Position numbers and translations under genes: made by a program. The notes beneath the pieces were generated by a model. That model was not told the DNA's origin. It ran no database searches and was given only the letters and a program-made list of their open reading frames with translations. From a virus (lineage: Duplodnaviria > Caudoviricetes): 59,059 nucleotides of DNA. Positions 7,203-45,081 of this stretch are shown here, piece after piece. Location of the stretch: the IMG/VR virus record IMGVR_UViG_3300036651_001467, positions 1-59,059 of that record; one strand, written 5' to 3'. Numbering within the stretch: the first letter of the stretch is position 1; every line of letters starts with the position of its first letter.

Positions 7203-7580
7203 CTATCGGCCCTCCTTGGCGGCTTCCCGGCGCTCGACGGCATCAAGCAGGCCTTCCGCGATTTCCGCGCACGTATCGGGACCGACCGTTCCCGTCTCGT
7301 CACTTGGGTCGTCGGCCTCGGCACCGATCCGGAGCCACACAATCGCAGCCGCTTGGAGCAACGCGTGCCGCCGACGCTCGGCCTTCGCATCGTCGTACTG
7401 GCCGACCATCTGGAGGTAGTTGAGGGTGTTGGGTGCGGGCGCGGCGCTGGGCTCCGGCCGGGCGACAGCCTCGAAGCCCATGCAGCAGCAAAACCGATGG
7501 GTGCAGGTGCCAAGGTCGCCGAGCCGATTGCGGTGCCAGGGACCCCTGTGGCCGCATATGCAAAAGTCCGAGAGGATCAT
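7203..7580 (-). CDS. Hypothetical protein with N-terminal Cys/His cluster
   Basis: CICGH...H...C...CCC; coupled to the upstream gene. Confidence 0.6.
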   Translation of the reverse strand: MILSDFCICGHRGPWHRNRLGDLGTCTHRFCCCMGFEAVARPEPSAAPAPNTLNYLQMVGQYDDAKAERRRHALLQAAAIVWLRIGAEADDPSDETGTVGPDTCAEIAEGLLDAVERREAAKEGR

Positions 7581-7768
7581 GCTGCCGCCACTTCCTTCGT
7601 CCGCTGGAGCTTCTCGCGGATGGCGGCGCGTATCCAGGAGGCGATGGAAATGTCGAAGCCCTCCGCTTCGGCCTGTTGCTTGATAGCGCGGTATGTTTCC
7701 TGTTCGACGGTCAGGGTGACCGCGCGCTTGCTCCGCGTGAGTCGCTTGCGCTTTTGCTCATTGACCAT
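7577..7768 (-). CDS. Cro/Arc-like ribbon-helix-helix repressor (probably leaderless, ATG 7768)
   Basis: AVTLTVEQETYRAIKQQAEAEG..SIASWIRAAIREKL fits the RHH pattern. First gene of the leftward lytic operon. Confidence 0.72.
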   Translation of the reverse strand: MVNEQKRKRLTRSKRAVTLTVEQETYRAIKQQAEAEGFDISIASWIRAAIREKLQRTKEVAAA

Positions 7769-7774
7769 GGAGAG

Positions 7775-7850
7775 ACTGTAAATGCATAGATAATGCATTG
7801 TCAAGTAAAAAAGTGCAATATCTACAATAAAAATGCAACTTGCCTATTTT
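7775..7850. promoter_or_regulatory. Divergent genetic-switch region: leftward sigma70 promoter plus repeated AATGCA boxes
   Basis: Minus-strand TTGACA (7804-7799)-N18-TACAGT (7780-7775), 6 nt before ATG 7768. AT-rich, with four A(A/G)TGCA boxes. Confidence 0.7.
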
Positions 7851-7876
7851 CATGGGCTTGCGTAAGGTCAGCACAG

Positions 7877-8239
7877 GTGCCAAAGAAAAAGAACAAGCCA
7901 ATCAAGGTCCTGAATGCAAGACTTCACGCCGACGTTTATGCAGCCGCAGAGGCAGCGGCGGAGGAGCGCGGCCTCAGCCTCACGTCCCTGACGGAGCGCC
8001 TGCTCAGGAAGCATGTGAAGATGACTCTCGCCTCGACTCGGCCAGAGGAATCGTGGGCCCTCTTGGCATTGCGCGCAATCAAGGAGAAGCGGGGCGATGC
8101 CGCTTGGGCGAGCACGCTGCTCAGCATCGAGGCAAGCGCCAAAAAGGCAAATCATTCGATGGGACAGGAGATGCGGGATGACCTTGAAACTCTTAAAAAA
8201 GGCACGGAAAGTGTCGCCCGAACCGGAACAGATCGCTGA
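7877..8239 (+). CDS. Putative immunity repressor (RHH/HicB-like N-terminus)
   Basis: VLNARLHADVYAAAEAAAEERGLSLTSLTERLLRKH; divergent from the Cro-like gene. Confidence 0.68.
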   Translation: MPKKKNKPIKVLNARLHADVYAAAEAAAEERGLSLTSLTERLLRKHVKMTLASTRPEESWALLALRAIKEKRGDAAWASTLLSIEASAKKANHSMGQEMRDDLETLKKGTESVARTGTDR

Positions 8240-8372
8240 AATGTACGCTCGCCTCCGTGAGACATCGAACCGCCGCCACGTCATGCATGTGATAGAGGAT
8301 CACTTGGCAGAGGAGGCGCAGGATGCGGTGGACGGAGCGCGGAAGGGGCCGCAGGGGGAGAGTGGCAGATGA
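8178..8372 (+). CDS. Small hypothetical protein
   Basis: RBS AGGAG before ATG 8178; overlaps the repressor 3' end. Confidence 0.45.
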   Translation: MTLKLLKKARKVSPEPEQIAEMYARLRETSNRRHVMHVIEDHLAEEAQDAVDGARKGPQGESGR

Positions 8373-8829
8373 AGCGCCTCGCCCGCAACGCATGAGCGCG
8401 AGAACGCAGTACGAAAACAGGTCCGGCGAACCACTGATTGCGTGGGTTGTCGGCGCGGTGGCGCTCGGGTTTGCGTCCAGAGCGGTGGCGATGCCAGACT
8501 GGCTGATATTTGGCGTGGGGCCGGTGTTCATCGCAATCGGCTGGGCCGTGGCGCGCTGGGCCGACAATGAGTACGAAGTTGTTGAGCGCGCAGGTCGGCG
8601 CCTCGGGCTGATTCAGAGTGACGCACGCGCCCCTGCTCAGTATTGCGACAGCGCGGCCGCCACAGGCGTTCCATGCATAAAATGCGAGCGCGAATGGGAG
8701 TGCATGACGCTTCGGCAGCGACGCCGATGGAGAGCGTGGGCTTGCCACGCGACTGAACTTTTAAGTTCCGGCCCCACGGTCGGCCAACTTAAAAGGCTGC
8801 GCGACAAACTCAACGGGATGGGTTTGTGA
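8362..8829 (+). CDS. Two-TM membrane protein with Cys-rich C-terminus
   Basis: LIAWVVGAVALGF and WLIFGVGPVFIAIGWAV; CxxC downstream. Confidence 0.6.
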   Translation: MADEAPRPQRMSARTQYENRSGEPLIAWVVGAVALGFASRAVAMPDWLIFGVGPVFIAIGWAVARWADNEYEVVERAGRRLGLIQSDARAPAQYCDSAAATGVPCIKCEREWECMTLRQRRRWRAWACHATELLSSGPTVGQLKRLRDKLNGMGL

Positions 8830-8973
8830 GCGCAGCCATCGCCTGGGTCAGAGGGGGAGGGATTCACATGAGCGAGAATCGCCGGTCGGCTTCAGCGGCT
8901 CGGTGCGGGATACTCGTCGCTATCGGCGAGGCGGAACTAGCCGAGGCTTGTATGGCTACGGAAGGATAGCGGA

Positions 8974-9387
8974 ATGGCAAAATCCATCAACTGGAGGCGC
9001 GGTTTGGCGCGGGCATGGTGCGTCGCCGCGACATGTTGGTACGTGTTGGCAGCGGCTCTCTTGTGGCAGCCCTGGGGAGCTTCGCTTTCCGCGCGCCGGT
9101 CTCCCATGGCCATAAAGTCCGATGGAGTGCGGGACGCATCAACAATGGGCGCCGGCATTGATTGGGCTGCGGTGGCGAATGGTACCGATCCGACTGGAGG
9201 AGCGCGGCGAAACGACCATCGAGAATATCCCATCAGCAACGTTCCTGCGCACGCATTTCCAATTGCGGAAACGGTGTGCGCTGTGGCTATACCGTGGGGG
9301 GTTCTCGCGTTCGGGATTGCCACGCTTTGGGCTCTCCGTGGATTCGCTTCGTCTTCCGCTGCCGACACTGACCAACGCGCTCTTTAG
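8974..9387 (+). CDS. Two-TM inner-membrane protein carrying a copy of the ejection-protein GIDWxxVAxG motif; candidate superinfection exclusion protein
   Basis: WRRGLARAW-TM1...loop GAGIDWAAVANGTDPTG...TM2-WALRGF. The motif matches 17384-17428 and 17330-17368. Confidence 0.75.
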   Translation: MAKSINWRRGLARAWCVAATCWYVLAAALLWQPWGASLSARRSPMAIKSDGVRDASTMGAGIDWAAVANGTDPTGGARRNDHREYPISNVPAHAFPIAETVCAVAIPWGVLAFGIATLWALRGFASSSAADTDQRAL

Positions 9388-9797
9388 TTTATGAACGTCG
9401 CGTGGACCCAATCCGAGATCGCCCGCGCCTGCCATCTTCGCGCCTTGGAATGGCGCGCGCTTCCGGCGGTTGGCGCTATTGAGTTCGAATTCGCCAAACA
9501 GGCGGGCTTGATCGAAAAGGAAGAGAGATGCGAGGCGCATAGGGATAATCCAGGAGGAACAACATGAAAGATGAGGGCTGCGGGCCAACGCCCAAGACGC
9601 TAACGCTGAGATGCGAGCATGGCGACTGCGGGCACGCATTTGCGGCCCCCCTTTGCCGCATTGGAGGAGCGCCCTGGAATATACGCGCAAGTGGCTCGAT
9701 GCCCGCTTTGCAATCGCATATCGAGGTACGCCATCGGTCCAAACGGCGTTGTCAGATGGATTGGAGGGGCGACGTTCTCCGAGCCCAAGCCGGCCGG

Positions 9798-10124
9798 TTA
9801 GTCCCAGACTCCAGCCTTGACCGCGTCAGGAGAAAGCCGGTCCGGACTCGGCATCTCGTACTCAGGAATTAGTGAGCTGACGAAATAGACGTTGGTTTTG
9901 CAACTTGGGCAGGTGAATTTACCCTCAAGCCCCTCCGTCCAACCGTAGAGAAGACCAGACGGCGACTTCACATGGATTGGAGGTACGTCCACATGATAAA
10001 TAACGCCGCCGCATCTACAGCGAACCGTAACCTCCTTCGGCCTCGGTGTGACCATTGGGACTTGGCTAGGATCATATGGGAATGGTTCGGTGACGGTTGG
10101 GATTGTTGTTTTCTCGATCGCCAT
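9798..10124 (-). CDS. Zinc-ribbon hypothetical protein
   Basis: RBS GGAGG; CRCG...CPSC. Confidence 0.6.
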   Translation of the reverse strand: MAIEKTTIPTVTEPFPYDPSQVPMVTPRPKEVTVRCRCGGVIYHVDVPPIHVKSPSGLLYGWTEGLEGKFTCPSCKTNVYFVSSLIPEYEMPSPDRLSPDAVKAGVWD

Positions 10125-10221
10125 GACGTTCCTCCGGGGCGTCGGCTGGCCATGAGGGCGCGCCAACGACTGGCAGATATTATAATGCACAACGCCATAT
10201 TTATGCATATATACTGGTGGC

Positions 10222-10929
10222 ATGACCACGCAGCTTCAGGACAATGAATTACCGATGACAATGCAAATCGCCATGGTTGGCACTGACGGCATCGTCCTTG
10301 CCAGCGATACAAAATGGGCTTACGGAGGTGACATCAGGCACACTTCCGGCAGCTCAAAAATCCACGTTAATGACGCGGGTACGCTTGCCGTCTCGTTCGC
10401 GCGAAGCATGGAATACGCGGAGGCGGTAGCGCTCCAAATCATCCGCGAAATGACCACGGCGCAGGATTGGGAGCGGCCAATTCTGCGTCTGGAAGAGATT
10501 GCGCAAGCGCTCATTGACAAAGACGATGATCCGGCCCGCTTGCGGCGAGACGCGCAGTGCCTAGTAATTTCGAGACTGCCAGAGCCATGCCTCCACTTTA
10601 TTTTTGTCGGCACAATCAACAGCGCCCCTTGGCGTGCATGTTGCCGGCGCGTTGATGATAAGGCCGTGGCCGGAGACCAAGTCAATGCGGCGGTCTACTG
10701 GTCCGAGCGCTTTTATTCAAAGTACGCCGTTGCGGTCCTCTCGGAGCTGGCTGCCCAGGTGGTCGTATCGGCTGCATCGCTGAACCCGGCGGGGATTGGC
10801 GGCCTAGAGATGGTTGTTTGCCGCAATGACGGCATTGCGCGGCTGCCCGAGACGGAGTGCGCGGCAATGGAGCAACGAGCTCGCGACCGCGAGGCGGCAT
10901 TTTCCGGAGGCATTGCGGTTGGCAGGTAA
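10222..10929 (+). CDS. Proteasome-beta/HslV-like Ntn-hydrolase-fold protein
   Basis: (M)TMQIAMVGTDGIVLASDTK...SKI and C-terminal NPAGIGGLEMVV. -10 TATACT at 10210-10215. Confidence 0.7.
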   Translation: MTTQLQDNELPMTMQIAMVGTDGIVLASDTKWAYGGDIRHTSGSSKIHVNDAGTLAVSFARSMEYAEAVALQIIREMTTAQDWERPILRLEEIAQALIDKDDDPARLRRDAQCLVISRLPEPCLHFIFVGTINSAPWRACCRRVDDKAVAGDQVNAAVYWSERFYSKYAVAVLSELAAQVVVSAASLNPAGIGGLEMVVCRNDGIARLPETECAAMEQRARDREAAFSGGIAVGR

Positions 10930-10953
10930 AATCCATGGCTCTCGGACTTTCCG

Positions 10954-11448
10954 ATGGGCCGTACTTTGCGAAAGATGGCTCGGTCTATTTATGGCCAGCC
11001 AACAGTTTACTGCCCGAACTCACGGCAGCATTCGTCATTTGCCCCGTTGCCCATACCGCTCCCATTTCCCACATTGACAGGGCTAATGAAAGATCCACCC
11101 GACTTACCCATGGATACGTGGCAAGTAGCCGTTGGATGTCCTGCATGCGGCCTTGTGTCCGTTCACGAGTCTGGGGAGGTAGCTTGGTTGCCCCTGGGCA
11201 AGGCCACAGAAGGAAGCTACGCGAGTGAGGGCAGGATGGTGAGAGTAGAAGCCGAAGGCGCCCGAAGAGACTGCCGAATTCCCGTCGTATTTCATACGCC
11301 CGTTGATGTGGATGGGCAAAAAGATGAAAGCGAAGTGATCGCCAGACTTCGAGCCTGCTTTTTCGAGTTCGCGTGCGGTAATGGTCACCAGATCCAGCAG
11401 ATTCCCCAGGAACGCTATCGGTTGACGCGAATCGCTCGGGTGTGGTAG
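10954..11448 (+). CDS. Cys-rich hypothetical protein (start uncertain)
   Basis: CPACG and CGNGH motifs. Confidence 0.45.
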   Translation: MGRTLRKMARSIYGQPTVYCPNSRQHSSFAPLPIPLPFPTLTGLMKDPPDLPMDTWQVAVGCPACGLVSVHESGEVAWLPLGKATEGSYASEGRMVRVEAEGARRDCRIPVVFHTPVDVDGQKDESEVIARLRACFFEFACGNGHQIQQIPQERYRLTRIARVW

Positions 11449-11533
11449 CCATATAACCCCCAATTCTACTCTAAAACGTAACAACGCCCCCAGCGCGGGC
11501 CGGGGGCGAAGTGAACGAACGAACTGTTGACGT

Positions 11534-11857
11534 TTACGCGGTCTTGGTCGCCGGCGTCTTGCCGAACAGACCGCCGACGGTACCAACAAGGCGCTCGATC
11601 GCCGCGATTGCGGCCTCATCAAACACGATGTTGAGCCCGGATGCGCCGACCGCCGCTCCCGTTGCAGTAGCAGCGGCGAGCACGCTGCCCGCGACTGCTT
11701 CGATGTCGGCCTGCACCTGGGCACCCTTGCTTCCGATCAGGCCGGCGAGTGCGGTGCCCAGCGGCGATTCGATGATCGCCTGAGCCTCCTTGGCGACGGG
11801 GACGATGTGGGACAGAACCCATGCGAACGCATGGCCGATTGAGTTAAAAATCTTCAT
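11534..11857 (-). CDS. Small Ala-rich late protein
   Basis: RBS GAGGT; last gene of the late operon. Confidence 0.65.
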   Translation of the reverse strand: MKIFNSIGHAFAWVLSHIVPVAKEAQAIIESPLGTALAGLIGSKGAQVQADIEAVAGSVLAAATATGAAVGASGLNIVFDEAAIAAIERLVGTVGGLFGKTPATKTA

Positions 11858-11939
11858 AGTGACCTCGATTTTGCCGGCGTGACCGGCTGTTAGGGTTGAC
11901 GAATTGCCGGCTGCCCGGCGGGGAAGGGAACTCTGCCGG

Positions 11940-14900
11940 CTACCAGCCGGTCGTACGCGGCCGCTGCTTGCCGCGATTCAAATACTCGGAGAAACTGCGC
12001 GGCGCGGAACCGTCGCCCAATAGCGCCCGCGTCCGGGCCTGCTGGAGCATGGCGATCGTGGGGTCCGAGCTGCGCTGCGCTTCCGCCAGCAACTGCTCGG
12101 CGCTGCGCTTCGCCGGGCCAACGTGCGACATGACGGTGTAGCGGCAGTTGTGAACCAGAACGCCATTTGCGAAGTATTCCGGCTCGCCTTCAACTTCCAG
12201 GTTGTATACGTCCGCGCGGCCCCCGGCGCGCTTTCCCAGCACACGCACGGGAACAGTTTGTGGAATCGCTGTACCGATTGGAGCCGCGCCGGAAGGTGAT
12301 GCCGTTGAATTGCACGGACTCAGACTCAACCCTTGGTCTCCGCACATTACCTCCATTAGCGGCGCAAAGCCGCGACCCTCCACCCATAGCGGATGCTCTT
12401 CCGTTCCGCGCAGGAGCGCACCGTTTGCGAACGCGACAGTTACGGTGGGCGCATTGACGCGCGTGCGCCACGCACGCAATACGCGGCGCGGCCCTTTGCG
12501 GGTAAGCACCATGTCCCCACGGCAAACCATCTCAATCGGAACGTCCCGTCCGTCGCCCATGCGGATCAACGTGCCAGCGGTCAAACAGGAGTCAATTACG
12601 TCATCTAGAGGGTCGCCCTTGACCTTCAGCACGTCATCGTTTCGGTTCGGGTCGTGAATGCGCGTCTGCAGGGCTTCGGCCAACTGCGGGCACTTGTCCG
12701 ACAGCATCAGTTCGCCGCTGTTCAGCATCGTGTAGATCAGCATGGCCCCGGCCACGCGATCATCGGTCGCGCTCTGGAAGGCTATCCCGGATCCCTGATA
12801 CATCTGATCGGCGAGCGTGTTGCCGTCACCACGATTGCTGAACGAATCCGGCGAGAGATACCACGCCTGAATTCTCTGCGGCTCGGTCATCGTGCCGCGT
12901 TTCACGGCGAAGTTGCGCCACAATGACCGCGCGAAATCGGGCGCTGGCTCGTGCTTCGATGTGTATTCGTCAACCACGTACACCCGCCCGCGCGGGAAGC
13001 CGTCGCACGGCTCGCTGCGGCAGAGCAGGTGTGCGGATGCTTGGCTGATACTGAAACCGTAGTCCGCCCCCGCCCAATGCGGCCACCATGGCTGCACCGG
13101 GATCTCGTTGGCCGGGATCACCATGCGCGACTGGTTCCAGCACTCGAAGTACTGACCCTCGAATGCGCCCCAGCATCCCGCCAGCAACGCTTCGCGGAAC
13201 TTGGCGGAGAGGCCCTCTAGCTGTTTGGCGTACTCCGGCCCCAGTAGGTTGTGGTCAGTCAGGCGACCGGGAATGTAGCACGTCGAGAACCCGATCAGCC
13301 GCCCGTCCGATGGCCACCGTGCATCGTCGTAGATTCTGAATGGCTGCCGCGCCCCGGCCAGCGATTCGCCCTCCTGCTCCAAGCAGTGCAGGCACTTCGG
13401 CCCCTGAAATATCGAGCGGTGAAAGACGTGCCCAACGTTACCGGGGTTCGTCGCCAGCCGGATGCGGAGGAACAGCGACGGGTCGGTGGAGCGCAGCCGA
13501 CTAGTGAGGTAGCGGATTGGTTCCTCGGCGAAATGGGTTGATTCATCGAAACCGATGAATGTGTACTGCGCGCCCTGGTACTTGAAGATGTCTTTGTCGC
13601 GTTCGCAGTAACCGAACTCCACGATGCCACCCGAAGGGAATCGCCATGCGTGCTTCTGGTCGTTGTACTTCGCCCCCATCGCGGCATACAACTCATGGCT
13701 GCGCCGGATCAGGCTCTTGTCCAGCTCGGGGAAGGTTTTGCGAAACAGAATCGCGCGCAGATTGGGGTTGTCGCGCTCGAGGATCGCGTCCACCAGCATT
13801 GTCTCGGAATTGTGGGTGGGGATGAAGGCGCGTCCGGCGAGGTAGAGCCGCGACGGCGATGACACGCTGATGCAGCGCACCTCGCCACCCTCGACCAACT
13901 CGGCCGCGACGATGTACCGGCGCGTTGTAGTTGGGCGTGTCGCCAGCCGCAACCGGGACGCCTTGCGCGGCAGGCGGAAGACCTGCATGGGCGGCGTGAA
14001 ATGCAGCGCGAACGATGCGCCATGGTCCACGCCGTTCAGCACGGCGCGCCCCGTGCTCACCGCTGCCTTGATGCCGAGCGAGCACAGCATCTCCCGCATT
14101 CCCCATGCGAGCTCCGGCGCGCAGGTCGAGAAGTAACAAGCGCCGCTCTTCTGGGCGCATCCGTCGGTGTCCATCAACCCCTGAATCAATGCCAGCCGTT
14201 GCGCGATGCTGGCGCGGAAATAGGGCGCGGGAATCGCCTTCAGGCCCAGCAGGCCGCAGCGCCGCAGCATCGGGAGTAGCCCAAGAATGCCGTGCGACCA
14301 CGCCCCGGCGTGATTCGTGACCGTGAATCCATCCTTGCGGATTTCGTCGAACAGTTCGGCGTCAGGCTTGATGATGGTCGCTTGGCGGGAGTTGCCGTCC
14401 CCAAGCCATGCTCCCAGCGTGTAGGGCGGGATTGGGAGCGCCGCCTCCGGCAACTCGATCGGCTGCGCCATGGCGACGGAGTGATTGTTTGTCGCCCCGG
14501 CCTTGAGTGTTGCCGCTATTTCCGCCGTGGTCCGAACGGTGCCCGTTGGCGGCTGTAGGCATGTGGCGGGTCGCCAGCCTGCGGCCTTGGGGCGCTTGCC
14601 CCGCCCCGGCCGCTTCGCGCGCCGCCGAGCCTTCCATGCCTCATCCCGCCGCAGCGCGACGGTGCGCTCTAGCCGGGTCATCGTTTTCCAGTAATGACCC
14701 GCATCGGCGATGATTTCCTCGCCATCGTCAAATCGCAGACGGTACGCCACCGCCGGTTGGGTTATCGGCCCAACCGCCGTGACGGTGCATTGGTGGCCGC
14801 AATCGTCGAATACGATGTCGCCTACCGCTATATCGCGCATCGGCGTGAATCCACCGGGCGTCGGAATCGGTGTCTCCACGTCCAGTGCTTTGAGCGAACC

Positions 14901-15215
14901 GGCCGCGCCGCCCGCAAGCACAAGCTGCGCTGGACACTTCAGCAGCATTTCCTGCGGCTTTGACCTCGGCTCCCAGTTCGGAATGCCGACGCCCGCCGGT
15001 ATGACCAACGACCCCGGATCGCTGCGCTCGCTCGGCGGAGCCGCAGCATTCACGGCAACCCGTTCGCGCTCCAACTCATCCCGCAACTCTGGATCGCGGG
15101 CGAGGTATTCGGCGGGGCCGGGGAGGCCGGGGGCGAGCGGCTTACTTGCAATACTTTTAAGTTTCGCCAGCTTCTCCGCTGGTGTGTGGCGCCATTTCTC
15201 GCCGAACTTGCTCAT
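11940..15215 (-). CDS. terL: Terminase large subunit (Terminase_6 type) containing two inteins
   Basis: Walker A GGAAGSLK|S, Walker B FIGFDEST, coupling motif LATNPG, nuclease GADYG and DDVIDS|CRY. Confidence 0.95.
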   Translation of the reverse strand: MSKFGEKWRHTPAEKLAKLKSIASKPLAPGLPGPAEYLARDPELRDELERERVAVNAAAPPSERSDPGSLVIPAGVGIPNWEPRSKPQEMLLKCPAQLVLAGGAAGSLKALDVETPIPTPGGFTPMRDIAVGDIVFDDCGHQCTVTAVGPITQPAVAYRLRFDDGEEIIADAGHYWKTMTRLERTVALRRDEAWKARRRAKRPGRGKRPKAAGWRPATCLQPPTGTVRTTAEIAATLKAGATNNHSVAMAQPIELPEAALPIPPYTLGAWLGDGNSRQATIIKPDAELFDEIRKDGFTVTNHAGAWSHGILGLLPMLRRCGLLGLKAIPAPYFRASIAQRLALIQGLMDTDGCAQKSGACYFSTCAPELAWGMREMLCSLGIKAAVSTGRAVLNGVDHGASFALHFTPPMQVFRLPRKASRLRLATRPTTTRRYIVAAELVEGGEVRCISVSSPSRLYLAGRAFIPTHNSETMLVDAILERDNPNLRAILFRKTFPELDKSLIRRSHELYAAMGAKYNDQKHAWRFPSGGIVEFGYCERDKDIFKYQGAQYTFIGFDESTHFAEEPIRYLTSRLRSTDPSLFLRIRLATNPGNVGHVFHRSIFQGPKCLHCLEQEGESLAGARQPFRIYDDARWPSDGRLIGFSTCYIPGRLTDHNLLGPEYAKQLEGLSAKFREALLAGCWGAFEGQYFECWNQSRMVIPANEIPVQPWWPHWAGADYGFSISQASAHLLCRSEPCDGFPRGRVYVVDEYTSKHEPAPDFARSLWRNFAVKRGTMTEPQRIQAWYLSPDSFSNRGDGNTLADQMYQGSGIAFQSATDDRVAGAMLIYTMLNSGELMLSDKCPQLAEALQTRIHDPNRNDDVLKVKGDPLDDVIDSCLTAGTLIRMGDGRDVPIEMVCRGDMVLTRKGPRRVLRAWRTRVNAPTVTVAFANGALLRGTEEHPLWVEGRGFAPLMEVMCGDQGLSLSPCNSTASPSGAAPIGTAIPQTVPVRVLGKRAGGRADVYNLEVEGEPEYFANGVLVHNCRYTVMSHVGPAKRSAEQLLAEAQRSSDPTIAMLQQARTRALLGDGSAPRSFSEYLNRGKQRPRTTGW
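12147..12587 (-). mobile_element. Class 1 mini-intein, 147 aa, in the TerL nuclease domain
   Basis: CLTAGTLI...GTEEHP...DVYNLEV...NGVLVHN/C; no endonuclease domain. Confidence 0.9.
13809..14888 (-). mobile_element. Class 3 (Ala1) intein with LAGLIDADG homing endonuclease, 360 aa, in the TerL P-loop
   Basis: Starts ALDVETPIPT and ends IPTHN/S. WCT triad: GHYW, VRCIS, PTHN. LAGLIDADG motifs LGAWLGDG and LIQGLMDTDG. Confidence 0.9.
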
Positions 15216-15850
15216 GTCGTCCCGCCTGTGCCCAGCGCCGCCCGCCTCACCTCGCTATCCCAACTGGCGCGCGTAGCCCGCTCCGGCGCGATCACGTTGA
15301 GCTGCTGGCGATTATCCACATTGATGTTCGCCGGCTCGTTCCCCTTGACGTTGCGCAGGAAGCGCGACTTCATGTCGAGAATGCGGTGCTTGTCGGTGTA
15401 GCTCAGCTCGGCGAATTCGCTATCGTCCACCTGGGCTTGCAGGTTCAGCAGCGACTCGACCTGCCGCATGGCGATCAGGCTGAGGGCTTCCTTCTGCGTT
15501 TTCTCGAATTCCTCTTTGCCGCCGTGCTTCTCGAATTCCCGCAGCAAAATGGCTCGGATGTAGTGCGGGGTGGCCTGATGGCGGTCGGCGATCTCGGCAA
15601 CGCTCATGCCGGTGGCGTACTCGACCGTCGCCTGCTGCTTTTCCTTGGGGCCGAAGGGGCGGCGATGGCCACCCTTGGTCAACTTGCCGCGCGGCGAAAA
15701 GCGGTTCTTGCGCTTTTCCTCCTTCTCGGCGAAGCGGCGGGCGCGTTCCAGGTCGGTTACGGTGCGTGGCCGTCCGCGCCCGCGTTTAGGCGGGGCGGGG
15801 CTCTCCGGTCCTCCGGTTGGCGCCGGGACGGCAATGTGATCTTCTGGCAT
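15212..15850 (-). CDS. Probable terminase small subunit (HTH)
   Basis: HTH MSVAEIADRHQATPHYIRAIL; ATGA overlap with terL. Confidence 0.65.
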   Translation of the reverse strand: MPEDHIAVPAPTGGPESPAPPKRGRGRPRTVTDLERARRFAEKEEKRKNRFSPRGKLTKGGHRRPFGPKEKQQATVEYATGMSVAEIADRHQATPHYIRAILLREFEKHGGKEEFEKTQKEALSLIAMRQVESLLNLQAQVDDSEFAELSYTDKHRILDMKSRFLRNVKGNEPANINVDNRQQLNVIAPERATRASWDSEVRRAALGTGGTT

Positions 15851-15874
15851 AGATTACTGGCTTGTCGCTGGTGC

Positions 15875-17518
15875 TTATTGGTTGCGCGCGCCCTTCTGGC
15901 CAAACGTTCCGATTCCAGCCGCTCCCAAGCGCCCTAGCGATCGGAGCAGCTTGCCGCTATTGTTGGACGCCAACGCCTCGGCAATCTCGTTCTTGGTCAC
16001 TGCGGAAGCCGTGCGCCACAAAGGGGACTGAACAGCTTCGGCGAGAGCCATGACGGCTGCGCCTTCTCCAGCTCCGCGCGCTCCGCCGACAGCCAGTCCG
16101 GCGCCGGCCGTGAGCGGGTAGCCCAAGACCCTCTGTAATCCATTCTGGCCAATCCGGCGCGCATTAGTTGCTCGGATTACATCCTGAACCTGGCTCCAAA
16201 GGTGATACTCGGCGTTCAGTTTGGCGATGTCAGGCTGGTCGTTCGCAAGAACGCGGCGCATTGCATTGGCGGCAGCCCGCTGCGCGTCGAGAACGGAGCC
16301 CTCCGCAATCGAGGCCCCTTGGTACCCTTTAGCCGCCGACACGGATTTGTCAAGTATCTGCCTCGCCTTATTAAGGCTCTCGTACGACACGTCGGGGCCG
16401 ATCGCCTTTACGGTATCCTGCAAGTCCGTCGCCGCGTTCACGGCTTGCTGGTTCACCGGCACGCCATTCACGATGAATTCGTTCTTGTAGTTATCCAGCT
16501 CTTTGAGGATTGGCGATGTCGAAATGGTCGCGCTTGGCGGAATGGCACCCACGGCCTTCCCGATCTGTTCTCCGGTCGCGTCGGCCCTGTTGGCGGCCAT
16601 ATCTTCGAGAGACTGCCCGCTTGTGGTGACGACGCCACGGTCCAAAAGCTCAGGTATGACCTTCGCGGCCATGTATTTGTTCGCGTTCGTCGTTGGGTTC
16701 AGAAAGCGAGAATATTGCGTCTGTGCCGCTTGGCGGAGACGGTTGGCAACACTCGGCGCCACCTCCGCGAGCGCGGCACCACCAGCCCCTAACGCTGCGG
16801 CGGTTCGCGGATTCTGCCCATGCATGGCCGCATCGCCGCCAGCAATCGCGGCGTTGCCGGCAACGCGCCCGGAGATTCTCGCCGCGCCTTCCGCGAGAGC
16901 GTCTGCGCCGAGCTGTTCCGGTCCAACTGCTGCCAATTCCCCTGCCTGCTCCAAGCCAGCGCCCATTTGCGCCACCGCGCTGCCCGGATCTGGAGGTGCA
17001 GCTACATCGCGGACTCGGCGGTAGAGCGGCCCGACCAGATGCGCAGTCGGGTCATGCGCGTTGATTTGCTTTAACCCAGGCAGCGCCGCGAGATGGGCAG
17101 GAATATCGAGCGCGCTCGTGGCCGCGCCGCCAACCAGGTTGTTCGCCGCCCGCGCCGTAGAATTGTAGCCGGCCTTGATGGCGTTTCCAGCCGCCGCCGC
17201 ATCTCCATAGGCAGTTCCGAGCGCAGAGGTCTGCATATCAACCTTCGGTGCCGGCGCGGCAGGAGGCACGTAAAACGGGGAGGCGGGGTCTTTGGACGGA
17301 TCGGGGGCGGCGGTCGAAGCCTTACCGTCCCCACCCGCAGCCACGGCGTGCCAATCAATGCCTGCCCCGGTGGCTTTCTGCGCGCCGGTCGGGTTGCTGC
17401 CGTTCGCCACCCCCGACCAGTCAATGCCGGTAGCGGCTGGCGCGGCTGGCTTGACAGGCGCTGGCGCGCCGGGACCAGGCGCTTGTGGATCGTCGGGTTG
17501 GTTCGGGTCTCCGTTCAT
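15875..17518 (-). CDS. Internal virion / DNA ejection protein (547 aa) with two N-terminal GIDW repeats
   Basis: Ala/Gly-rich and helical; third of three tandem genes after the nozzle and GNAT genes, the podovirus ejectosome position. Confidence 0.7.
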   Translation of the reverse strand: MNGDPNQPDDPQAPGPGAPAPVKPAAPAATGIDWSGVANGSNPTGAQKATGAGIDWHAVAAGGDGKASTAAPDPSKDPASPFYVPPAAPAPKVDMQTSALGTAYGDAAAAGNAIKAGYNSTARAANNLVGGAATSALDIPAHLAALPGLKQINAHDPTAHLVGPLYRRVRDVAAPPDPGSAVAQMGAGLEQAGELAAVGPEQLGADALAEGAARISGRVAGNAAIAGGDAAMHGQNPRTAAALGAGGAALAEVAPSVANRLRQAAQTQYSRFLNPTTNANKYMAAKVIPELLDRGVVTTSGQSLEDMAANRADATGEQIGKAVGAIPPSATISTSPILKELDNYKNEFIVNGVPVNQQAVNAATDLQDTVKAIGPDVSYESLNKARQILDKSVSAAKGYQGASIAEGSVLDAQRAAANAMRRVLANDQPDIAKLNAEYHLWSQVQDVIRATNARRIGQNGLQRVLGYPLTAGAGLAVGGARGAGEGAAVMALAEAVQSPLWRTASAVTKNEIAEALASNNSGKLLRSLGRLGAAGIGTFGQKGARNQ

Positions 17519-19854
17519 TTCTTCACCTTGAAGCCGTGCTCAAGCGCATCGGCCAGGGCATCGCCATGGCTGATCCCATGCGCGTCGGCCGCCTTGTAGA
17601 TTTGGTCCAGTGTCAACTCCCCACCGCCGGTTGGGCCGCCCACCGGCCGCTTGTCCGGATTCCCCTCGCCGATCGCCTTGTAACGTTTGAGCACGTCTTG
17701 CGCCGGCCCAAGTGCGGCGAGCAGGTTTGGCCCTGTGGATTTGGCGCCGCCCAGTGCGTTCTCGAACTCGGCGATGCCCTTTTCTGTGTTGAGATGGGCC
17801 TTGGCAAGTCCGGTCACGAAAGTGGCGAAGTTGGAGCGGAATGCCGCAACGTCGGGATCGTTTCCGCCGACCTGTCCGGTCAGGAATTCGTTCCATCGCC
17901 CCGCAATCGGCCCCAGCTTCCCGGCGGCGTCGAGCTGCGAGATTTGGGATTGCAGGCTCGGCAACTGCTCGAGCAACGCCTGTGCCTGCTGACCGCGCGT
18001 CCGGGTCGTCGCGGTCGGCGCGAGGACCGAATGCATGCCCACCGGTGCACCCGTTTCCGGGTTTCGGGGAAGTCCGGCCTCAAGATCGGAGATCTCATGA
18101 GGCGAGAGTCCCAGTCCCGGCAGTTCCATAATGGCCGGGTTGATTTCGGAGGCGCTGATGATGCCCCGGATCTGGGCGTAGGTGAGACCCTGGAGTTTGG
18201 ATTGGGCGTTTTTCGCTGCGGTCTGAGCCTGCTGCAGCTTTAGCTGAAATTGGGGAGAATTCGGGTTGGCCACGGCTTGCTGCTGGGCGTCCATGAGCGC
18301 GGAATGCGCCTGCTGCGCTTCGGTCTGCGCGGCCATAAGCGCGGCATGGCCCTCGGTTACCTTTCGAGTGGCTAGTTCCTGCGGGGTGAGTTGTTCGTCC
18401 GGCAGCGGGTTCCCCTCCGCATCAAGTCCCTGCTTGCGGTAGGCGGCCGCAATCTTGGCCGCGTCGTTTTTCTGCGTTTCGCTCAGTTTGTCCTGGGCAT
18501 CCTGGGCGCGCTGATCCGCATTCTGGCCGGATTGTTCAAGTGTCGCCGGTCCCTTCTCCGCTTCCACAGCGTTCTTGAGCGCGTCGGCATTCTCCGCATA
18601 CTGCTGATTCGCCTGCCGGTACTTCTGGCCGGCGAGCGCCTTGTACGTGTCCACGCCCACCAGCGGATTCATACTCAGCGCGCCAGTCCCGATGCCCGCC
18701 AACACGTCGAGCGCCTTCTGCCAGCCATGCGCCTTCAGGTTCGGATCGTTCTGGTCAGGCGGCGTTAGTCCCGCCAGCTTCGCCACGTCCGCGTTGTAGC
18801 GATCGCGGGCGGGCTGGGGCGGTGGAGTGAGCGACGTGAGATCGGGCGTCGGCTTGAGCGCCCCCAGCACATCCTTGTTGTAGGTCTGGCTGCCGGGCGG
18901 CGTCAGCGTCGTGGGCGGCGCGGCTGGTGTCGCCGGCAGTCCCGCCAGCGCGTCCATCGGGTTCGGCTTCGCCGGGGCCGGGGCTTGTGCATTCGGCGGC
19001 GCTATGGTTGCATCCGCCAATGATGGGGATGGCGCGGCGACAGTCTGCGGCGTTGCAGCGGCCGAGGCGTCTGGCGGCGCTCCCGCCGGGTCCAGCTCGC
19101 CACCTTGATTGAAGTGCCGCATTTTGGTGGTGCGAATCGCCTGCTTCGCCGCCTTACCATGCAGCGGCGTCACCTGCACCCCGCCTCCGGGCAGCGCCAA
19201 CAGTTCCTCGGGCCCCTTCTCGCCGACAATGCCCATGCCCGCGTTCAGCCGGCCACCGCGCGCGAAATGCGGCAACTGCGCGAGGCCCGTCAGGATGTCG
19301 TTGTCGGCGGGCGCTCCGGCATTGGCTCCTGCTGCTGCCTCTGGCACAAAGCCCGTAGGCGCGCCTGCCGGCGATCCGTTGGGCGATGCGCCGGGGTTCG
19401 CGCTCGACATCTGGAGTTCCTTGGCCGCTGCGCCCAGCCCTTTGCCGCCGCGCTGGCGACTGGCCTGCAATTGCCCCGGCGGCTGGTTACCGGCGCTCAC
19501 CACGCCGGAGTTCGGCGGCTGCGCGGGGGAGTGAAACTCGGGGTTGCCCTCGCCCACTTCGCCGGTGGATGCCATCTCGCCCGACATCCGCTGCAGCACG
19601 TTGGGCACGCGCACGTCGCCCAGCGCATCCTTCACCTCCGGGGCGGTTGACAGGCCGCCCGGAGTGAGCTGCGAGGTGCGGATTTTCCGCAGTGCGAGCG
19701 ACATCCAGCCCTTCGCCGCGCCCCCTCCCGGCGTCGGCGTAGCTTTCGCGCCCAGCAGGTAGGGGTGGCGGTCGCTGGTCATGTCGGCGGGGTCTTGGCC
19801 CAATCCAGCCAGCCCGACGTTGCCCTTGGGTTGATTTGTGCGTTTGCCGATCAT
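17515..19854 (-). CDS. Internal virion / DNA ejection protein (779 aa)
   Basis: FARGG...IVGEKGPE motif, Pro/Ala/Gln-rich linkers, one hydrophobic segment; position. Confidence 0.7.
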   Translation of the reverse strand: MIGKRTNQPKGNVGLAGLGQDPADMTSDRHPYLLGAKATPTPGGGAAKGWMSLALRKIRTSQLTPGGLSTAPEVKDALGDVRVPNVLQRMSGEMASTGEVGEGNPEFHSPAQPPNSGVVSAGNQPPGQLQASRQRGGKGLGAAAKELQMSSANPGASPNGSPAGAPTGFVPEAAAGANAGAPADNDILTGLAQLPHFARGGRLNAGMGIVGEKGPEELLALPGGGVQVTPLHGKAAKQAIRTTKMRHFNQGGELDPAGAPPDASAAATPQTVAAPSPSLADATIAPPNAQAPAPAKPNPMDALAGLPATPAAPPTTLTPPGSQTYNKDVLGALKPTPDLTSLTPPPQPARDRYNADVAKLAGLTPPDQNDPNLKAHGWQKALDVLAGIGTGALSMNPLVGVDTYKALAGQKYRQANQQYAENADALKNAVEAEKGPATLEQSGQNADQRAQDAQDKLSETQKNDAAKIAAAYRKQGLDAEGNPLPDEQLTPQELATRKVTEGHAALMAAQTEAQQAHSALMDAQQQAVANPNSPQFQLKLQQAQTAAKNAQSKLQGLTYAQIRGIISASEINPAIMELPGLGLSPHEISDLEAGLPRNPETGAPVGMHSVLAPTATTRTRGQQAQALLEQLPSLQSQISQLDAAGKLGPIAGRWNEFLTGQVGGNDPDVAAFRSNFATFVTGLAKAHLNTEKGIAEFENALGGAKSTGPNLLAALGPAQDVLKRYKAIGEGNPDKRPVGGPTGGGELTLDQIYKAADAHGISHGDALADALEHGFKVKK

Positions 19855-20400: not shown

Positions 20401-20819
20401 TAATCGCCTCCATCCTTCGCCCGTGACTCAGTAGACGCGCACAGAAGCCGATACCGCGGATCAGCCGCATGGAATCCGAGCCGCCGCAACAGCGGCTCTA
20501 GCTTGCTGAGCGTTGATTCCAGTTCGAACAGCCGCACCTCGTCAATTCCCGCCGCCGCCAGTTCCGCCCGGATGACGTCATGCTCCCGCCACGCTGCCCG
20601 GAGCGCCATGGCGTCCGCCGCTATGTAGTACAACTCGATGGCGGCGTGCGCAACCACCGCTCCCACCACGCGCCCATTCTCTTCGAAAACGGCCATGGCG
20701 AAGGTCTGGGTATCGTTCGCCGGATATGGCGTCTGCGCCCCTATCGCCTCGCACTGCCGCGCATGAATCGCCCGCAGCGCCGCTTCATCCGACGACTGGT
20801 ATGCGCGCCGGGTTATCAA
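20400..20819 (-). CDS. GNAT-like virion-assembly protein (probable TTG start at 20819)
   Basis: AVFEENGRVVGAVV...LLRRLGF; TTGA overlap with the nozzle gene stop. Confidence 0.6.
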   Translation of the reverse strand: MITRRAYQSSDEAALRAIHARQCEAIGAQTPYPANDTQTFAMAVFEENGRVVGAVVAHAAIELYYIAADAMALRAAWREHDVIRAELAAAGIDEVRLFELESTLSKLEPLLRRLGFHAADPRYRLLCASTESRAKDGGD

Positions 20820-23176
20820 CCGATCCCCGGACGCATCGCCCAGAAAGGCTTGGCGAACAAGTACAGCGCCGACAAGTCCATCGTCGCGGGGCCGACGTTG
20901 CTGATGCGCAGCCCGCTGGCCTCGCTCGTCACCAGCGCCAGGCCCGTCAGGTCGCCGCGCGTGGGCGTGGTCAACGCGAAATTGGCGATGTTCACGGGTG
21001 CGCTGGCGTTGGGCAGGGCGTCCACCGCGATATTGCCAGTGCCGCTCGCCCTGATCTGCACGATCCCCAAAGTCTCCATCCCTTGCCGCATCTGCTTTGC
21101 CACCTCCGCCGCCGATACCGCGCCGGTGGACAATGCCCAATTGAACGGCTGGCCAAAGTCGGTGACCGCGCTCGGGTCAACGTAGCCGACATAGCCCGCG
21201 CCCTGAGCCGCCAGCAGAAGCTGCGACTGCCCCAACCGCCGATCCGGTGGCACCGCCGAAAGCGGCAGCGGGCGGTACACGCGAACCGCCTGCGCCGCCG
21301 GGATCTCGTCGAGCGACCACCTGCGCCCCGGCGCGTAATGGTAGCGCCCGGAAATGGCGCTGAACCGAAGGCTTGAATCCCAACCGTCTTTGTAGTCCAC
21401 CTTGAGGATGTGGCTGCACGCGGTCGCGCCATCCAGCGGCACGCCAATCCGCACCACTTTCTGCTCCTCATCAAGCTGCACCCAAATCAGATGGTCGTAG
21501 GCCCAGTTGATCCGCTCCCACAGGCCGGGCTTGTCGGGTGCGGATGCGATCAATTCATTGCTGATCCAGGTCGGCGATCCTCCGTCGAATATGTACGCGC
21601 CGGTGCGATGAACGATGATTGCCACGTCGCGCCCCACCGCAATGCTCCGCGCCCCCGGCGTCCCAACGGTCGGAGCTACGCACTGGATATTCCAACTGTC
21701 CGGGTCGCCCTGCGTCGGCGTCACCAGGTACAGGCCGTTCTCCTTGACCACGAACAACTGGTTGCGATACTCGAAGCAGTTCGTGCATCGCTGGCCGTCG
21801 TTGACGTTGACCTGAAAGAAGCCGGTATCGCCGTAGTAATTGCCGGGCAGCGCCGTGTCCGATACCCGGAAGATGCTCTGACCCTCGCCCCACCATATCA
21901 ATCGGTCAGTGGTGACCGAGTATGCTACCCCCACCTCGTTCGGTAACTGAATGCAGCGAAATTGGTTCTCGACGTTGGTGGCGACTTGTGAGCCGAGAAA
22001 GGCGTCGTCGAAGTTGAACGACGCGGTGGTGGTCACGTTGTCGTTGATGATCGTCGCCGTTTCGTTGACGCCATTGACCGTCTGCGAGGCGCCGATGTAG
22101 AAATAGGGGCCGTTCTGGCCGGCTCCCGCCACGGTGAATGCAAGGATGCGCTTCGCCACCTGGGCCGGCCCGGTGGGCACGCTCGATACGGTCAACTCCA
22201 GACCGCCCGTGCCAGTGCCCGGCGGCGCTGCGCCCGAAGTTGTGATCGGGGTGGAGAGGAATACGCCGCTCGATCCAACCGCGAAATACGACTGTAGCTT
22301 TTCCGCGCCGCTCGCCAATGAAACATATACGCCCCAGTCGGTGACACCTGGCGGGGCGACGTTGGGCCAGATGACGCCCAGCATGTAGGCATCGCCCGTC
22401 GGGGCGGGAGGAACCACGATCTGCGCTTCCGGCGATGCCACAGTCTCCCCGGCGGCGCTCTTGTATGTCAGCACGGCATAGTAGGTTCCAGCGGGCAGCG
22501 TCGAGGAACCGCTGCCGGTCAGTTCTGTGGTGAGTTGCGGGGCCGGCGGCGGCGTACTGAGGCCGGCACCGTTGAAGCTGAAGGGCTGTGACGGGGCCGT
22601 GATCGTTCCCGCCGTATCCTGAAACAGCACCACGCCCCAGCGCACGCCGGCGGCGATGTTTCCCGGCGTCACCGCGTTGGCCATGGTCGTGCCGGCGGGT
22701 GGCGCGGCAATCGTGATCGCCTGAAAGGTACGAGTGCCGCCGTCATACAATCCCGGCTGCCCCGATGGAGTCTTGCCGTCGCTGAAGCCGAGATAGGCGC
22801 GCCCGTAGACGGCCGCGCCGTTCATTTGCGCTCCGACGGTTGCGACAAGTGGCGCGGTCGGCACAACCGTTTTCAGGTTTCCGCTTCCCGCCGGCGTTTC
22901 CACCATCAGGTTGCCAGCGATGTCGAACAGCAGCGGGGCTTGCGTGCCGGAGAGCGAGAGGTAGTCGAGAATGCCGGTGAAGCCATACGGCACTTGGTTC
23001 AGCGCGTTCGGGTTGGCAAAGGCCCGCGTAATGCCTTCGCGCTGCGATACCGACGCCAGGTTGAACCGGATGTTCAATGCCTGCGTCATCAGTGACGCAT
23101 CCAGCATCTCCGGCGGCCACATTGTGATGAGGCCGCCGAAGTGCTCGATGGGAATAGGGGTGTAGCCTTCCAGCAT
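20816..23176 (-). CDS. Tail nozzle / packaged-DNA stabilization protein (P22 gp10-like beta-propeller) with an inserted beta-sandwich module
   Basis: 786 aa, beta-rich; FGGL N-terminus, LFVVKENGLY, VGTPGARSIA; podovirus position. Confidence 0.7.
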   Translation of the reverse strand: MLEGYTPIPIEHFGGLITMWPPEMLDASLMTQALNIRFNLASVSQREGITRAFANPNALNQVPYGFTGILDYLSLSGTQAPLLFDIAGNLMVETPAGSGNLKTVVPTAPLVATVGAQMNGAAVYGRAYLGFSDGKTPSGQPGLYDGGTRTFQAITIAAPPAGTTMANAVTPGNIAAGVRWGVVLFQDTAGTITAPSQPFSFNGAGLSTPPPAPQLTTELTGSGSSTLPAGTYYAVLTYKSAAGETVASPEAQIVVPPAPTGDAYMLGVIWPNVAPPGVTDWGVYVSLASGAEKLQSYFAVGSSGVFLSTPITTSGAAPPGTGTGGLELTVSSVPTGPAQVAKRILAFTVAGAGQNGPYFYIGASQTVNGVNETATIINDNVTTTASFNFDDAFLGSQVATNVENQFRCIQLPNEVGVAYSVTTDRLIWWGEGQSIFRVSDTALPGNYYGDTGFFQVNVNDGQRCTNCFEYRNQLFVVKENGLYLVTPTQGDPDSWNIQCVAPTVGTPGARSIAVGRDVAIIVHRTGAYIFDGGSPTWISNELIASAPDKPGLWERINWAYDHLIWVQLDEEQKVVRIGVPLDGATACSHILKVDYKDGWDSSLRFSAISGRYHYAPGRRWSLDEIPAAQAVRVYRPLPLSAVPPDRRLGQSQLLLAAQGAGYVGYVDPSAVTDFGQPFNWALSTGAVSAAEVAKQMRQGMETLGIVQIRASGTGNIAVDALPNASAPVNIANFALTTPTRGDLTGLALVTSEASGLRISNVGPATMDLSALYLFAKPFWAMRPGIG

Positions 23177-23181
23177 GGCGC

Positions 23182-23565
23182 TTAGATTGACTTGTTGGTC
23201 TTAACCGAAACCTCGATCAGCAGGTCGGTCGCGCCACTCACCGCCGCCGGGATCGCACTGCCGTTGGCCAGCTCCGATCCGGCGGTCGAAATCTTCAGGC
23301 CCCAGTTGTTCAAGGCGCTGCCCTTGATGAGTTCGAATTCGTAGATCACCGGGCCGTTCTTCACGGAGTAATCGGTGACCGCGCCCGGCTGCCACGCCAG
23401 CGCCGCCGGCAGGAAACTCGGATTCAGGGTCGTGGTGAAGTCGAGCGTCAGCGGCGACTGGTAAGTGGCCGGCGATGCCGACACCGCCAGACTGAAGCTC
23501 CGGGTTTGTTCGTTGCGCCCCGCCTTGACGGCGAGAAGCGTGGGGGTAATAGTGGCTTGCGCCAT
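23182..23565 (-). CDS. Putative virion protein
   Basis: RBS AGGAG; beta-rich, 127 aa. Confidence 0.65.
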   Translation of the reverse strand: MAQATITPTLLAVKAGRNEQTRSFSLAVSASPATYQSPLTLDFTTTLNPSFLPAALAWQPGAVTDYSVKNGPVIYEFELIKGSALNNWGLKISTAGSELANGSAIPAAVSGATDLLIEVSVKTNKSI

Positions 23566-30991: not shown

Positions 30992-31043
30992 GTTCGCCTC
31001 CTGACGCATCCGCGCCAGCGTTCGAGCGTTGTTCGATAGACGA

Positions 31044-39309: not shown

Positions 39310-39351
39310 GGAATCTCCTTGGCCGGGGCTGCCGGCGTGTACGCGGTTGGC

Positions 39352-42076: not shown

Positions 42077-42257
42077 AAACTGTGAAAACGCATTGGGGCG
42101 CGCCGGCCAACGGGCCGAGTGGCGGGCAACTCAACCGCCAAACGCTGCGCCCCAAACTGATGGCACCTGTTTCATGACCCAACCCCGACAAGGGCGTGCG
42201 CACATCTCGTGCGCCACCATGGGTGCCGTAAACGAATAAATTCCGGCCACAGCTTCG

Positions 42258-44908: not shown

Positions 44909-45081
44909 CTGTGACTTTGGAAACGTGCCGTCTAACGGGCAGCAATGCGGTCAAGCCGCACCCGATGGCAGTCCTTACCGAGTCACGCGCCAAGCCCGGG
45001 GCATCACCGCCCCCGGCCTCAGCTCACTCATCTGTGATCCAACCCAACCTGCCATGTATGGAGTCTCTCAAAACTAAAATA

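Follow-up and report, generated by a model that had tools for sequence, protein, structure and literature searches.

We describe here a peptide that is shared by two proteins of an uncultured phage (Duplodnaviria; Caudoviricetes), represented by the virus record IMGVR_UViG_3300036651_001467 of IMG/VR. This single record of 59,059 bp was analysed as a whole and is called the window throughout. The peptide, GAGIDWAAVANGTDPTG (9148-9198, + strand), lies in the loop of a small membrane protein encoded at 8974..9387 (+), and it is a copy of the N-terminal repeats of p547, a 547-amino-acid (aa) protein of the virion gene block encoded at 15875..17518 (- strand). By sequence comparison, this sharing is real, and it is restricted to the genome described here. 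The best single reading that we can offer for it, held tentatively and with somewhat less than even confidence, is mimicry-based superinfection exclusion, in which the loop would be a tethered decoy of a docking peptide of p547.

The preliminary description of this stretch, made from its letters alone, had pointed to a motif in the loop between the two transmembrane helices and to two repeats that resemble it near the start of p547, and both observations were confirmed. The part of the small open reading frame (ORF) that holds the peptide reads ...STMGAGIDWAAVANGTDPTGGARR..., and the loop is identical to repeat 1 of p547 (GIDWSGVANGSNPTG, residues 31-45, 17384..17428, -) at 11 of 15 positions and to repeat 2 (GAGIDWHAVAAGGD, residues 51-64, 17327..17368, -) at 11 of 14 positions. 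Counted from the sequences, the loop matches one or the other of the tandem repeats at 14 of 17 positions. It had also been claimed that many of the identical residues use different codons, which holds for 5 of the 11 identical residues in each comparison; at the DNA level, the loop differs from repeat 1 at 11 of 45 positions and from repeat 2 at 14 of 42. In the codon table of repeat 1 against the loop, 7 of the 11 nucleotide differences are synonymous and 4 are not (binomial P 0.008 against a neutral 25%), an excess that argues for constraint, although the test is biased because the region was chosen by protein identity.

The specificity of the peptide can be seen at several scales. The pattern G[IVL]DW occurs four times in the six frames of the record, while the longer pattern [IVL]DW..[IVL]A.G occurs three times, and these three are exactly the loop and both p547 repeats. 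The loop has a raw score of 77 against its own p547 (BLOSUM62, ungapped) and of 30 or less against the N-termini of 18 other members of the p547 family. A word-indexed search of a collection of 5.8 billion proteins yielded no small protein with the loop, nor any other protein of 300-958 aa with the N-terminal motif. Within the small protein, the peptide sits in a lineage-specific insert, absent from the scaffold relatives P0001-P0003 and from the profile of the family.

The score of the match was compared with nulls made of reversed sequences, and the outcome depends on the search space. With the small ORF as the single query against the 1,013 six-frame ORFs of the window, the match came out on top, with 38.7 bits (E 1.6e-5) and a further 30.3 bits, the null maximum being 24.7. 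In an all-against-all comparison of the six frames with no composition correction, the same 38.7 bits ranked third (null maximum 36.5). In a set of 81 non-overlapping longest ORFs, into which the small ORF was forced because of the family-profile evidence given below, the pair was first in the ungapped comparison (38.7 bits; null maximum 30.6) and, with correction, third after two true paralogue pairs (30.4 bits; null maximum 25.0). By these comparisons, the match exceeds what chance would give in a set of gene-like ORFs and is borderline in the corrected all-against-all scan of the six frames.

The ORF at 8974-9387 is a real gene, and its 137-aa product is, by prediction, a two-helix membrane protein of an unnamed family that we refer to by its conserved ends, NWRRGLFRLW...WALRGF. 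With a profile made of 65 family members, from which the small ORF was left out, this ORF scores 68.3 bits (E 3.3e-20 among the 1,013 six-frame ORFs), whereas the runner-up ORF reaches E 0.048. Besides this profile score, the protein has the basic N-terminal motif, the two hydrophobic helices and the C-terminal W..RGF of the family. In an alignment of 66 sequences, its N-terminal motif is NWRRGLARAW (residues 6-15; 8989..9018, +), with N6, R9, G10, R13 and W15 as invariant or nearly invariant columns. Predicted transmembrane helix 1 covers approximately residues 13-33 (9010..9072, +; Kyte-Doolittle maximum 1.53 at residues ~11-30) and predicted helix 2 approximately residues 97-121 (9262..9336, +; maximum 1.95 at residues ~100-118). 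After the second helix comes the motif LWALRGF (residues 118-124; 9325-9345, +), in which W119 and G123 are invariant and F124 is nearly so. Over the whole alignment, the invariant columns are G10, R13, W15, P107, W119 and G123. The AlphaFold2 model built from the 66-row alignment has a mean predicted local distance difference test score (pLDDT) of 69.6 and places helices at residues 7-41 and 97-124, with pLDDT values of ~78-86 over residues 1-30 and ~85 in the second helix; the loop is of low confidence and contains a short helix at residues 64-68 over DWAAV. Searches of the small ORF against Pfam, PHROGs, NCBIfam and PADLOC gave no match (at E 0.1 or 0.01 for PHROG, Pfam and PADLOC).

The family to which the small protein belongs is large and previously undescribed; its members are small membrane proteins whose loop is hypervariable, and neither Pfam nor NCBIfam has a model for it. 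It is defined here from an exhaustive profile search, which retrieved 365 cluster representatives at E <=1e-3, of which 33 are at <=1e-10; a word-indexed search with the small protein gave three weak relatives (E 3.7e-3 to 1.6) that share both ends of the protein. The consensus of the family reads MNWRRGLFRLWlv.S..W, then helix 1, the loop and helix 2, and finally G.A..WA.RGF. The nearest clusters in the ESM Atlas are unnamed and come from Pseudomonadota. Within Acidobacteriota, the family is found in 2 of 301 genomes, one of these matches being weak, and the 3 genomes with relatives of p547 lack it. For the analysis of the loops, 101 of the 149 listed representatives were parsed (the other 48 were missed by our motif patterns, and the repeat protein P0037 was dropped). 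In the parsed members, the N-terminal and C-terminal motifs are separated by 46-204 residues and the loop is ~15-170 residues long. The loops are mostly unrelated between members, with some subfamilies (P0054, P0146, P0153 and P0091; P0073, P0131 and P0147; P0069, P0114 and P0143). Conserved cysteine pairs mark some of the subfamilies, as in ..EI..C..K.PG.WC.. and NPFDCF...F.DL.P, which argues that the loops are not random sequence. Three members (P0035, P0047 and P0116) consist of two tandem scaffold units, that is, four helices, each unit with its own loop.

We favour a topology in which both ends of the small protein would be cytoplasmic and the loop would face the periplasm, as the preliminary description had proposed from the positive-inside rule. 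The N-terminal tail carries 4 lysine or arginine residues in 13, and across the family the density of these two residues falls from 0.28 in the N-terminal tail to 0.117 in the loop and rises again to 0.26 in the C-terminal tail. The cysteine counts point in the same direction: 64 loops have none, 29 have two, 2 have four and 6 have one, so that the number is even in 31 of the 37 cysteine-containing loops and odd in the remaining 6, an excess which fits disulfides and hence an extracytoplasmic loop.

The second partner, p547, has five homologues (P0004-P0008) at 34-52% identity and 22 related loci (L001-L022), which include prophages in two metagenome-assembled genomes of Acidobacteriota and one contig of Patescibacteria. 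No related locus was obtained from viral contigs by a single-sequence search, and tblastn of p547 and of the capsid-like ORF of the window against a phage collection gave no match. The conserved part of p547 is its C-terminal half. In the AlphaFold2 model (18 rows), residues 39-246 have a pLDDT below 50 and appear disordered, while residues ~250-460, with a pLDDT of ~90, form a helical domain. On the - strand, p547 has upstream of it an ORF with a weak match to "virion structural protein" (phrog_3287, E 1.3e-6) and a 779-aa ORF; downstream of it lie a small-terminase-like ORF with a helix-turn-helix (HTH) and a large intein-bearing ORF. The product of the upstream ORF, p779 (17515..19854, -), whose stop overlaps the start of p547, is a partner by position: 12 of 13 related loci have an ORF of ~400-850 aa that ends within ~30 nucleotides (nt) of the start of the p547 homologue, and in most of them within 10 nt. 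BLASTP with p779 found no similarity in the related loci at E <=1e-3.

Modest evidence suggests that p547 may be an internal or ejected virion protein, of the kind of P22 gp7/16/20 and T7 gp14-16, one that would leave the particle at infection. A search of its model against BFVD gave five matches at E <=1e-3, the best at 7.5e-6, and two of the five are proteins with an LT_GEWL domain; E-values of 6e-3 to 7e-3 belong to rows named "DNA transfer protein" and "Injection protein", and other weaker rows are a Large polyvalent protein associated domain, a tape measure protein and a Peptidase M15B. Fusions to enzymatic or toxin domains mark injected polyvalent proteins. One relative of p547, with 1,374 aa (L001:9521-13642, +), carries a C-terminal Zeta_toxin domain (residues 1224-1304, E 8.9e-13) and is possibly an injected toxin fusion. 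The large gene that comes next in locus L020 has a weak match to head maturation proteases.

Nearly every homologue of p547 begins with a short motif of its own, which is often in tandem. Two tandem copies are present for IDLSAGLIP (P0005), LDFSDLGAK (P0007), KGQY.LSDI (P0006), PLFDMSKAEP (L020) and ARQSGATDEQI..YL (L010 and L022), and the motif.FPD....EI is found at the N-terminus in P0004, L001, L021 and L007. The motifs of L013 (NDWSDV, SDWQDV and NDWQDT) recall the IDWSGV and IDWHAV of the window. The N-terminal repeats look like lineage-specific short linear motifs, which would suit a specificity determinant.

Under the reading that we prefer, the N-terminal repeats of p547 would serve as a short docking peptide while the ejected proteins cross the envelope, and this peptide would bind a host or virion partner or would associate with itself. 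The copy in the membrane-tethered loop could then compete for the docking interaction, or co-assemble with it, and the DNA entry of sibling phages would be jammed, resulting in superinfection exclusion by peptide mimicry. In a variant of this mechanism, the tandem peptide would be self-associating, the copy itself would bind and no third partner would be needed. A complex prediction with residues 240-547 of p547 and residues 36-100 of the small protein, which contain the loop, had a score of 0.00 and speaks neither for nor against binding. If this reading is right, a membrane protein that visibly carries the peptide of the ejection protein itself would offer a concrete model of the exclusion contact that can be tested by mutation, and the disordered N-terminal tandem peptides of the p547 family would be marked as functional docking elements. 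The texts returned by a full-text literature search, as far as they extend, hold no account of exclusion through a peptide copied from an ejection protein.

The closest parallel is SieA of phage P22, a protein of the inner membrane that prevents DNA from being injected and works on the conduit of ejection proteins, with escape mutations in gp16 and gp20; according to the portions of the source that we draw on, its contact with the ejection proteins is not understood, and its upkeep despite great sequence diversity is hard to explain (Leavitt et al., mBio 2024, PMC10883804). Like SieA, the small protein is encoded by a temperate phage and, by prediction, is a small inner-membrane protein, and the block at the ejection-protein conduit is the mechanism that, by analogy, may apply to it, with the difference that in our case the specificity determinant would be visible. 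Unlike in our case, the same portions of that account do not describe SieA as holding a copy of an ejection-protein peptide, and they place its escape sites in C-terminal regions, whereas the peptide shared here is N-terminal (PMC10883804). The searches of PHROG, Pfam and PADLOC, which gave no match, reveal no relation in sequence between the small ORF and SieA, a direct comparison with SieA not being part of these searches, and we do not file it as a SieA member.

A broader version of the same idea, to which we give little credence, is that the whole family is a general display scaffold, whose hypervariable periplasmic loops, each carried by a conserved helical hairpin, would present decoys of the docking peptides of ejection proteins and form with them co-evolving specificity pairs. 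If this were true, each loop would record which phage is excluded, as a readable form of peptide-mimicry immunity, and the window would be the first case with both partners in one genome.

Several observations weigh against exclusion by mimicry, beginning with the sequences themselves. Once composition correction and SEG were applied to the all-against-all comparison of the six frames, the pair ranked fourth with 30.4 bits, below the null maximum of 31.2, so that such a score would arise by chance about as often as not in a corrected six-frame scan of everything. The codon usage of the small ORF is also unlike that of the long genes (third-position GC content, GC3, of 0.60 versus 0.68-0.83), its coding log-likelihood ratio is -13.8, that is, without coding signal, and the antisense ORF is longer than the small ORF itself; we accept the latter as a gene since the family profile overrides a codon-usage and GC3 test that is uninformative or negative. 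Nor is the periplasmic location of the loop secure, since two arginines, R41 and R42, come right after helix 1 and 7 lysine or arginine residues lie in the loop. The sequencing runs that hold the record or a near-identical one are 6 DNA runs, all of them soil metagenomes, and no RNA run holding the stretch is listed.

The identity of p547 belongs to the same set of objections. It has no match in Pfam or PHROGs, its model finds nothing in the PDB at E <=1e-3 with Foldseek, and VIA-align returns generic helix bundles only (Z <=9.6). The label of ejection protein, which had been given to 15875-17518 from the start, is in line with the virion block, the disordered N-terminal half, the BFVD rows and the Zeta_toxin fusion, and it finds no support in Pfam, PHROGs or the PDB; the structural E-values behind it are modest. 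As for the family of the small protein, a strict N-terminal pattern had no match in 2.9 million viral contigs, and two looser degenerate patterns retrieved only four true phage-borne members from the same contigs. This rarity in phage collections indicates that the normal role of the family may be unrelated to phages.

The attempts to extend the pattern beyond the window were negative as well. The scaffold profile found no scaffold gene in any of the 22 p547-related loci, the ORF of the window being the only match. The N-terminal motifs of p547 relatives were compared with their own loci in 13 non-redundant cases (L004, L011, L014, L017, L018 and L019 were dropped as duplicates, L009 overlaps L010, L008 lacks a flank and L016 lacks an N-terminus), and none of the 13 was repeated, the best self-match being <=27 bits, which is background. 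Three phage-borne members of the family with long loops, whose records are 100%, 60% and 39% complete, gave 21.9-22.9 bits against their own records, with nulls of 22.0-22.4. Finally, the 61 other loops of at least 25 aa among the 101 parsed members were compared with 19 N-termini of p547 type; the scores were mostly within the range of reversed or shuffled sequences and none was clearly above it. The loops FDDLxP, FDPxxPY and DWKAV had seemed to resemble p547-type motifs, an impression that failed against the reversed and shuffled controls. The C-terminal ends of the upstream neighbours of p547 homologues and the classes of N-terminal motif comprise too few sequences for covariation, and the contigs covering 7500-17600 are identical to the window, so that there are no variants for a selection test. 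The support is, then, one pair in one uncultured phage, and generalisation failed wherever it was tested.

Other explanations of the shared peptide have to be considered. The peptide could act as a ligand or targeting motif common to both proteins but unconnected with exclusion: during the phage's own cycle, the two would bind one and the same factor, either of the host envelope or of phage assembly; possible roles would be membrane-anchored assembly, lysis timing or the control of p547 before packaging. We consider this unlikely. In its favour, that tandem short N-terminal motifs are general in the p547 family indicates that the peptide is probably a binding element, and there is a second case of sharing between an accessory and a virion protein (43907-44950, -, with 29756-31072, -). 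Against it, the gene is not part of the virion operon but stands on the other strand, preceded by a candidate regulator, which fits an accessory gene expressed from the prophage better than late assembly, and the relatives of p547 lack such a partner gene, which argues that it is not an essential assembly factor.

Alternatively, the likeness may be historical and functionless: the loops of the family would evolve by insertions of arbitrary DNA, this one would have picked up a piece of a 5' end of p547 type from this phage or a related one by neutral fragment capture, and the protein would do whatever the family normally does. In favour of this, the loops range widely in length and are unrelated between members, the motif is located in the insert, the family is mostly non-phage, and none of the 3 other phage-borne members copies its own record. 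On the other hand, the peptide is 73% identical at a DNA divergence of 24%, with most differences synonymous (a figure biased by the choice of the region), the copied stretch corresponds to the unit that is repeated in p547 and not to a random piece of it, and the subfamilies of loops with cysteine pairs suggest that loops are under selection and are not junk. For these reasons we regard capture without function as improbable. Least probable is a chance likeness between two low-complexity stretches rich in glycine and alanine, for which the single reversed pair that outscored the true one in the corrected six-frame scan and the spurious pairs seen at similar E-values can be cited, but against which stand the 5-8 bits of the pair over the null maximum among the 81 gene-like ORFs, the agreement of the loop with both tandem repeats, the identities that include W, D, I, N, P and T besides G and A, and the absence of the motif from all other frames of the record.

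Exclusion by mimicry, our preferred reading, can also be compared with other envelope-located systems that stop phage DNA. HK97 gp15, TP-J34 Ltp and Tuc2009 Sie2009 are membrane proteins or lipoproteins that exclude by acting on tape measure proteins; they resemble the proposed mechanism in being prophage-encoded envelope proteins that stop DNA entry with a specificity set by the conduit-forming protein of the incoming phage, and differ in that they belong to other protein families and act on long-tailed phages, with no peptide copy reported in the sections of the source consulted (PMC10883804). In the HXS defence system, as presented in part of its report, an effector located in the periplasm likewise halts the entry of phage DNA; the system belongs to the host and depends for its maturation on radical S-adenosylmethionine (SAM) enzymes, with proposed electrostatic binding to DNA and, in that part, no mimicry of a virion peptide (Nat Commun 2026, PMC13128918). 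In the portion of its report used here, SNIPE is a membrane protein that engages the injection machinery, namely the tape measure protein, at the inner membrane, but it is a nuclease that cleaves the incoming DNA, and neither in sequence nor in size does it resemble the small ORF (Nature 2026, PMC13190303).

The small gene differs from class II holin genes in its position, which is distant from the late genes and on the other strand, with no adjacent lysis gene identified. Its product is like class II holins, and like further small phage membrane proteins with two helices, in its size, its two helices and a hairpin with both ends inside and charged termini. A long hypervariable loop and conserved NWRRG and RGF ends are not, to our knowledge, features of holins. 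A holin reading was set aside on the position of the gene only.

The small gene belongs to a run of + strand ORFs chained from 7793 to 9872, with junctions that overlap or are 4-5 nt long. The run lies on the strand opposite to the virion genes and opens with a weak ribbon-helix-helix or Arc-like regulator candidate (7793..8239, +; phrog_24318, E 3.8e-4), whose further matches, to an Arc-like repressor (E 0.017) and to HicB (E 0.034), are like the first under the curated cut-offs. The preliminary description had placed the gene downstream of a putative repressor and opposite to the lytic genes; the strand arrangement stands, while the regulator is a weak match below cut-off. Divergent from the run is a 75-aa ribbon-helix-helix candidate (7577..7804, -; RHH_1, E 0.0015; phrog_13890, E 5e-6), with a promoter-like site on the - strand at 7804-7775. 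The ORF immediately upstream of the small gene in the run (8323..8829, +) has hydrophobic stretches by eye, and its stop overlaps the next start (GTGA); it has no family match in Pfam, PHROGs or PADLOC. PADLOC gave no match for the 10 ORFs of the small-gene block. One of the other phage-borne family members lies downstream of an XRE-type HTH ORF and beside ORFs with starts that resemble signal peptides, an accessory context that looks, by eye, similar to that of the small gene. A 235-aa ORF at 10222-10929 (+) has a very weak match to the Proteasome family (E 0.049, below cut-off).

The record itself appears to be a circular assembly of ~58.9 kb, since bases 3-128 and 58934-59059 are identical at 126 of 126 positions; the circular junction falls inside the frame of an ORF (58205-59059, +) that we take, from its motif, to be an IS1595-like transposase. 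A tyrosine integrase gene at 52188-53474 (PF00589, E 1e-15) indicates a temperate phage, and an AAA_24 protein, a PDDEXK nuclease and a DNA methylase are also encoded. A long run of - strand genes extends from ~11.5 to 40.5 kb, with weak PHROG matches to a major head protein (E 9.7e-5) and to the virion structural protein phrog_3287 mentioned above. The intein-bearing ORF of 1,091 aa in the terminase position (11940-15215, -) has Hint_2, LAGLIDADG_3 and Intein_splicing matches, which fit inteins; it is a candidate TerL by its position and by the earlier description, no terminase family being matched.

Two sets of late or accessory ORFs show internal likenesses of their own. The 334-aa ORF at 43907-44950 (-), outside the virion block, has a 43-residue segment in common with the capsid-like ORF at 29756-31072 (-), with 22 of 43 residues identical and 45.7 bits ungapped against a reversed null maximum of 36.5, and is thus a second accessory ORF of the record in which part of a virion protein is copied. 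Two pairs of large late ORFs have paralogous regions of 70-150 residues, namely 39355-40605 (-) with 20819-23200 (-) and 25146-27170 (-) with 37765-39351 (-), at 40.8 and 35.4 bits with composition correction, and are possibly fibre or decoration proteins. The record also encodes a permuted transfer-messenger RNA (tmRNA) at 41849-42100 (-), which scores 114.7 bits with the Rfam model tmRNA_permuted and 84.7 bits with beta_tmRNA (gathering score 84), and whose tag is AKSNVIAFAAPAPLALAA according to ARAGORN. The betaproteobacterial model is the best clade model for this tmRNA and gives a weak hint of a Gram-negative host.

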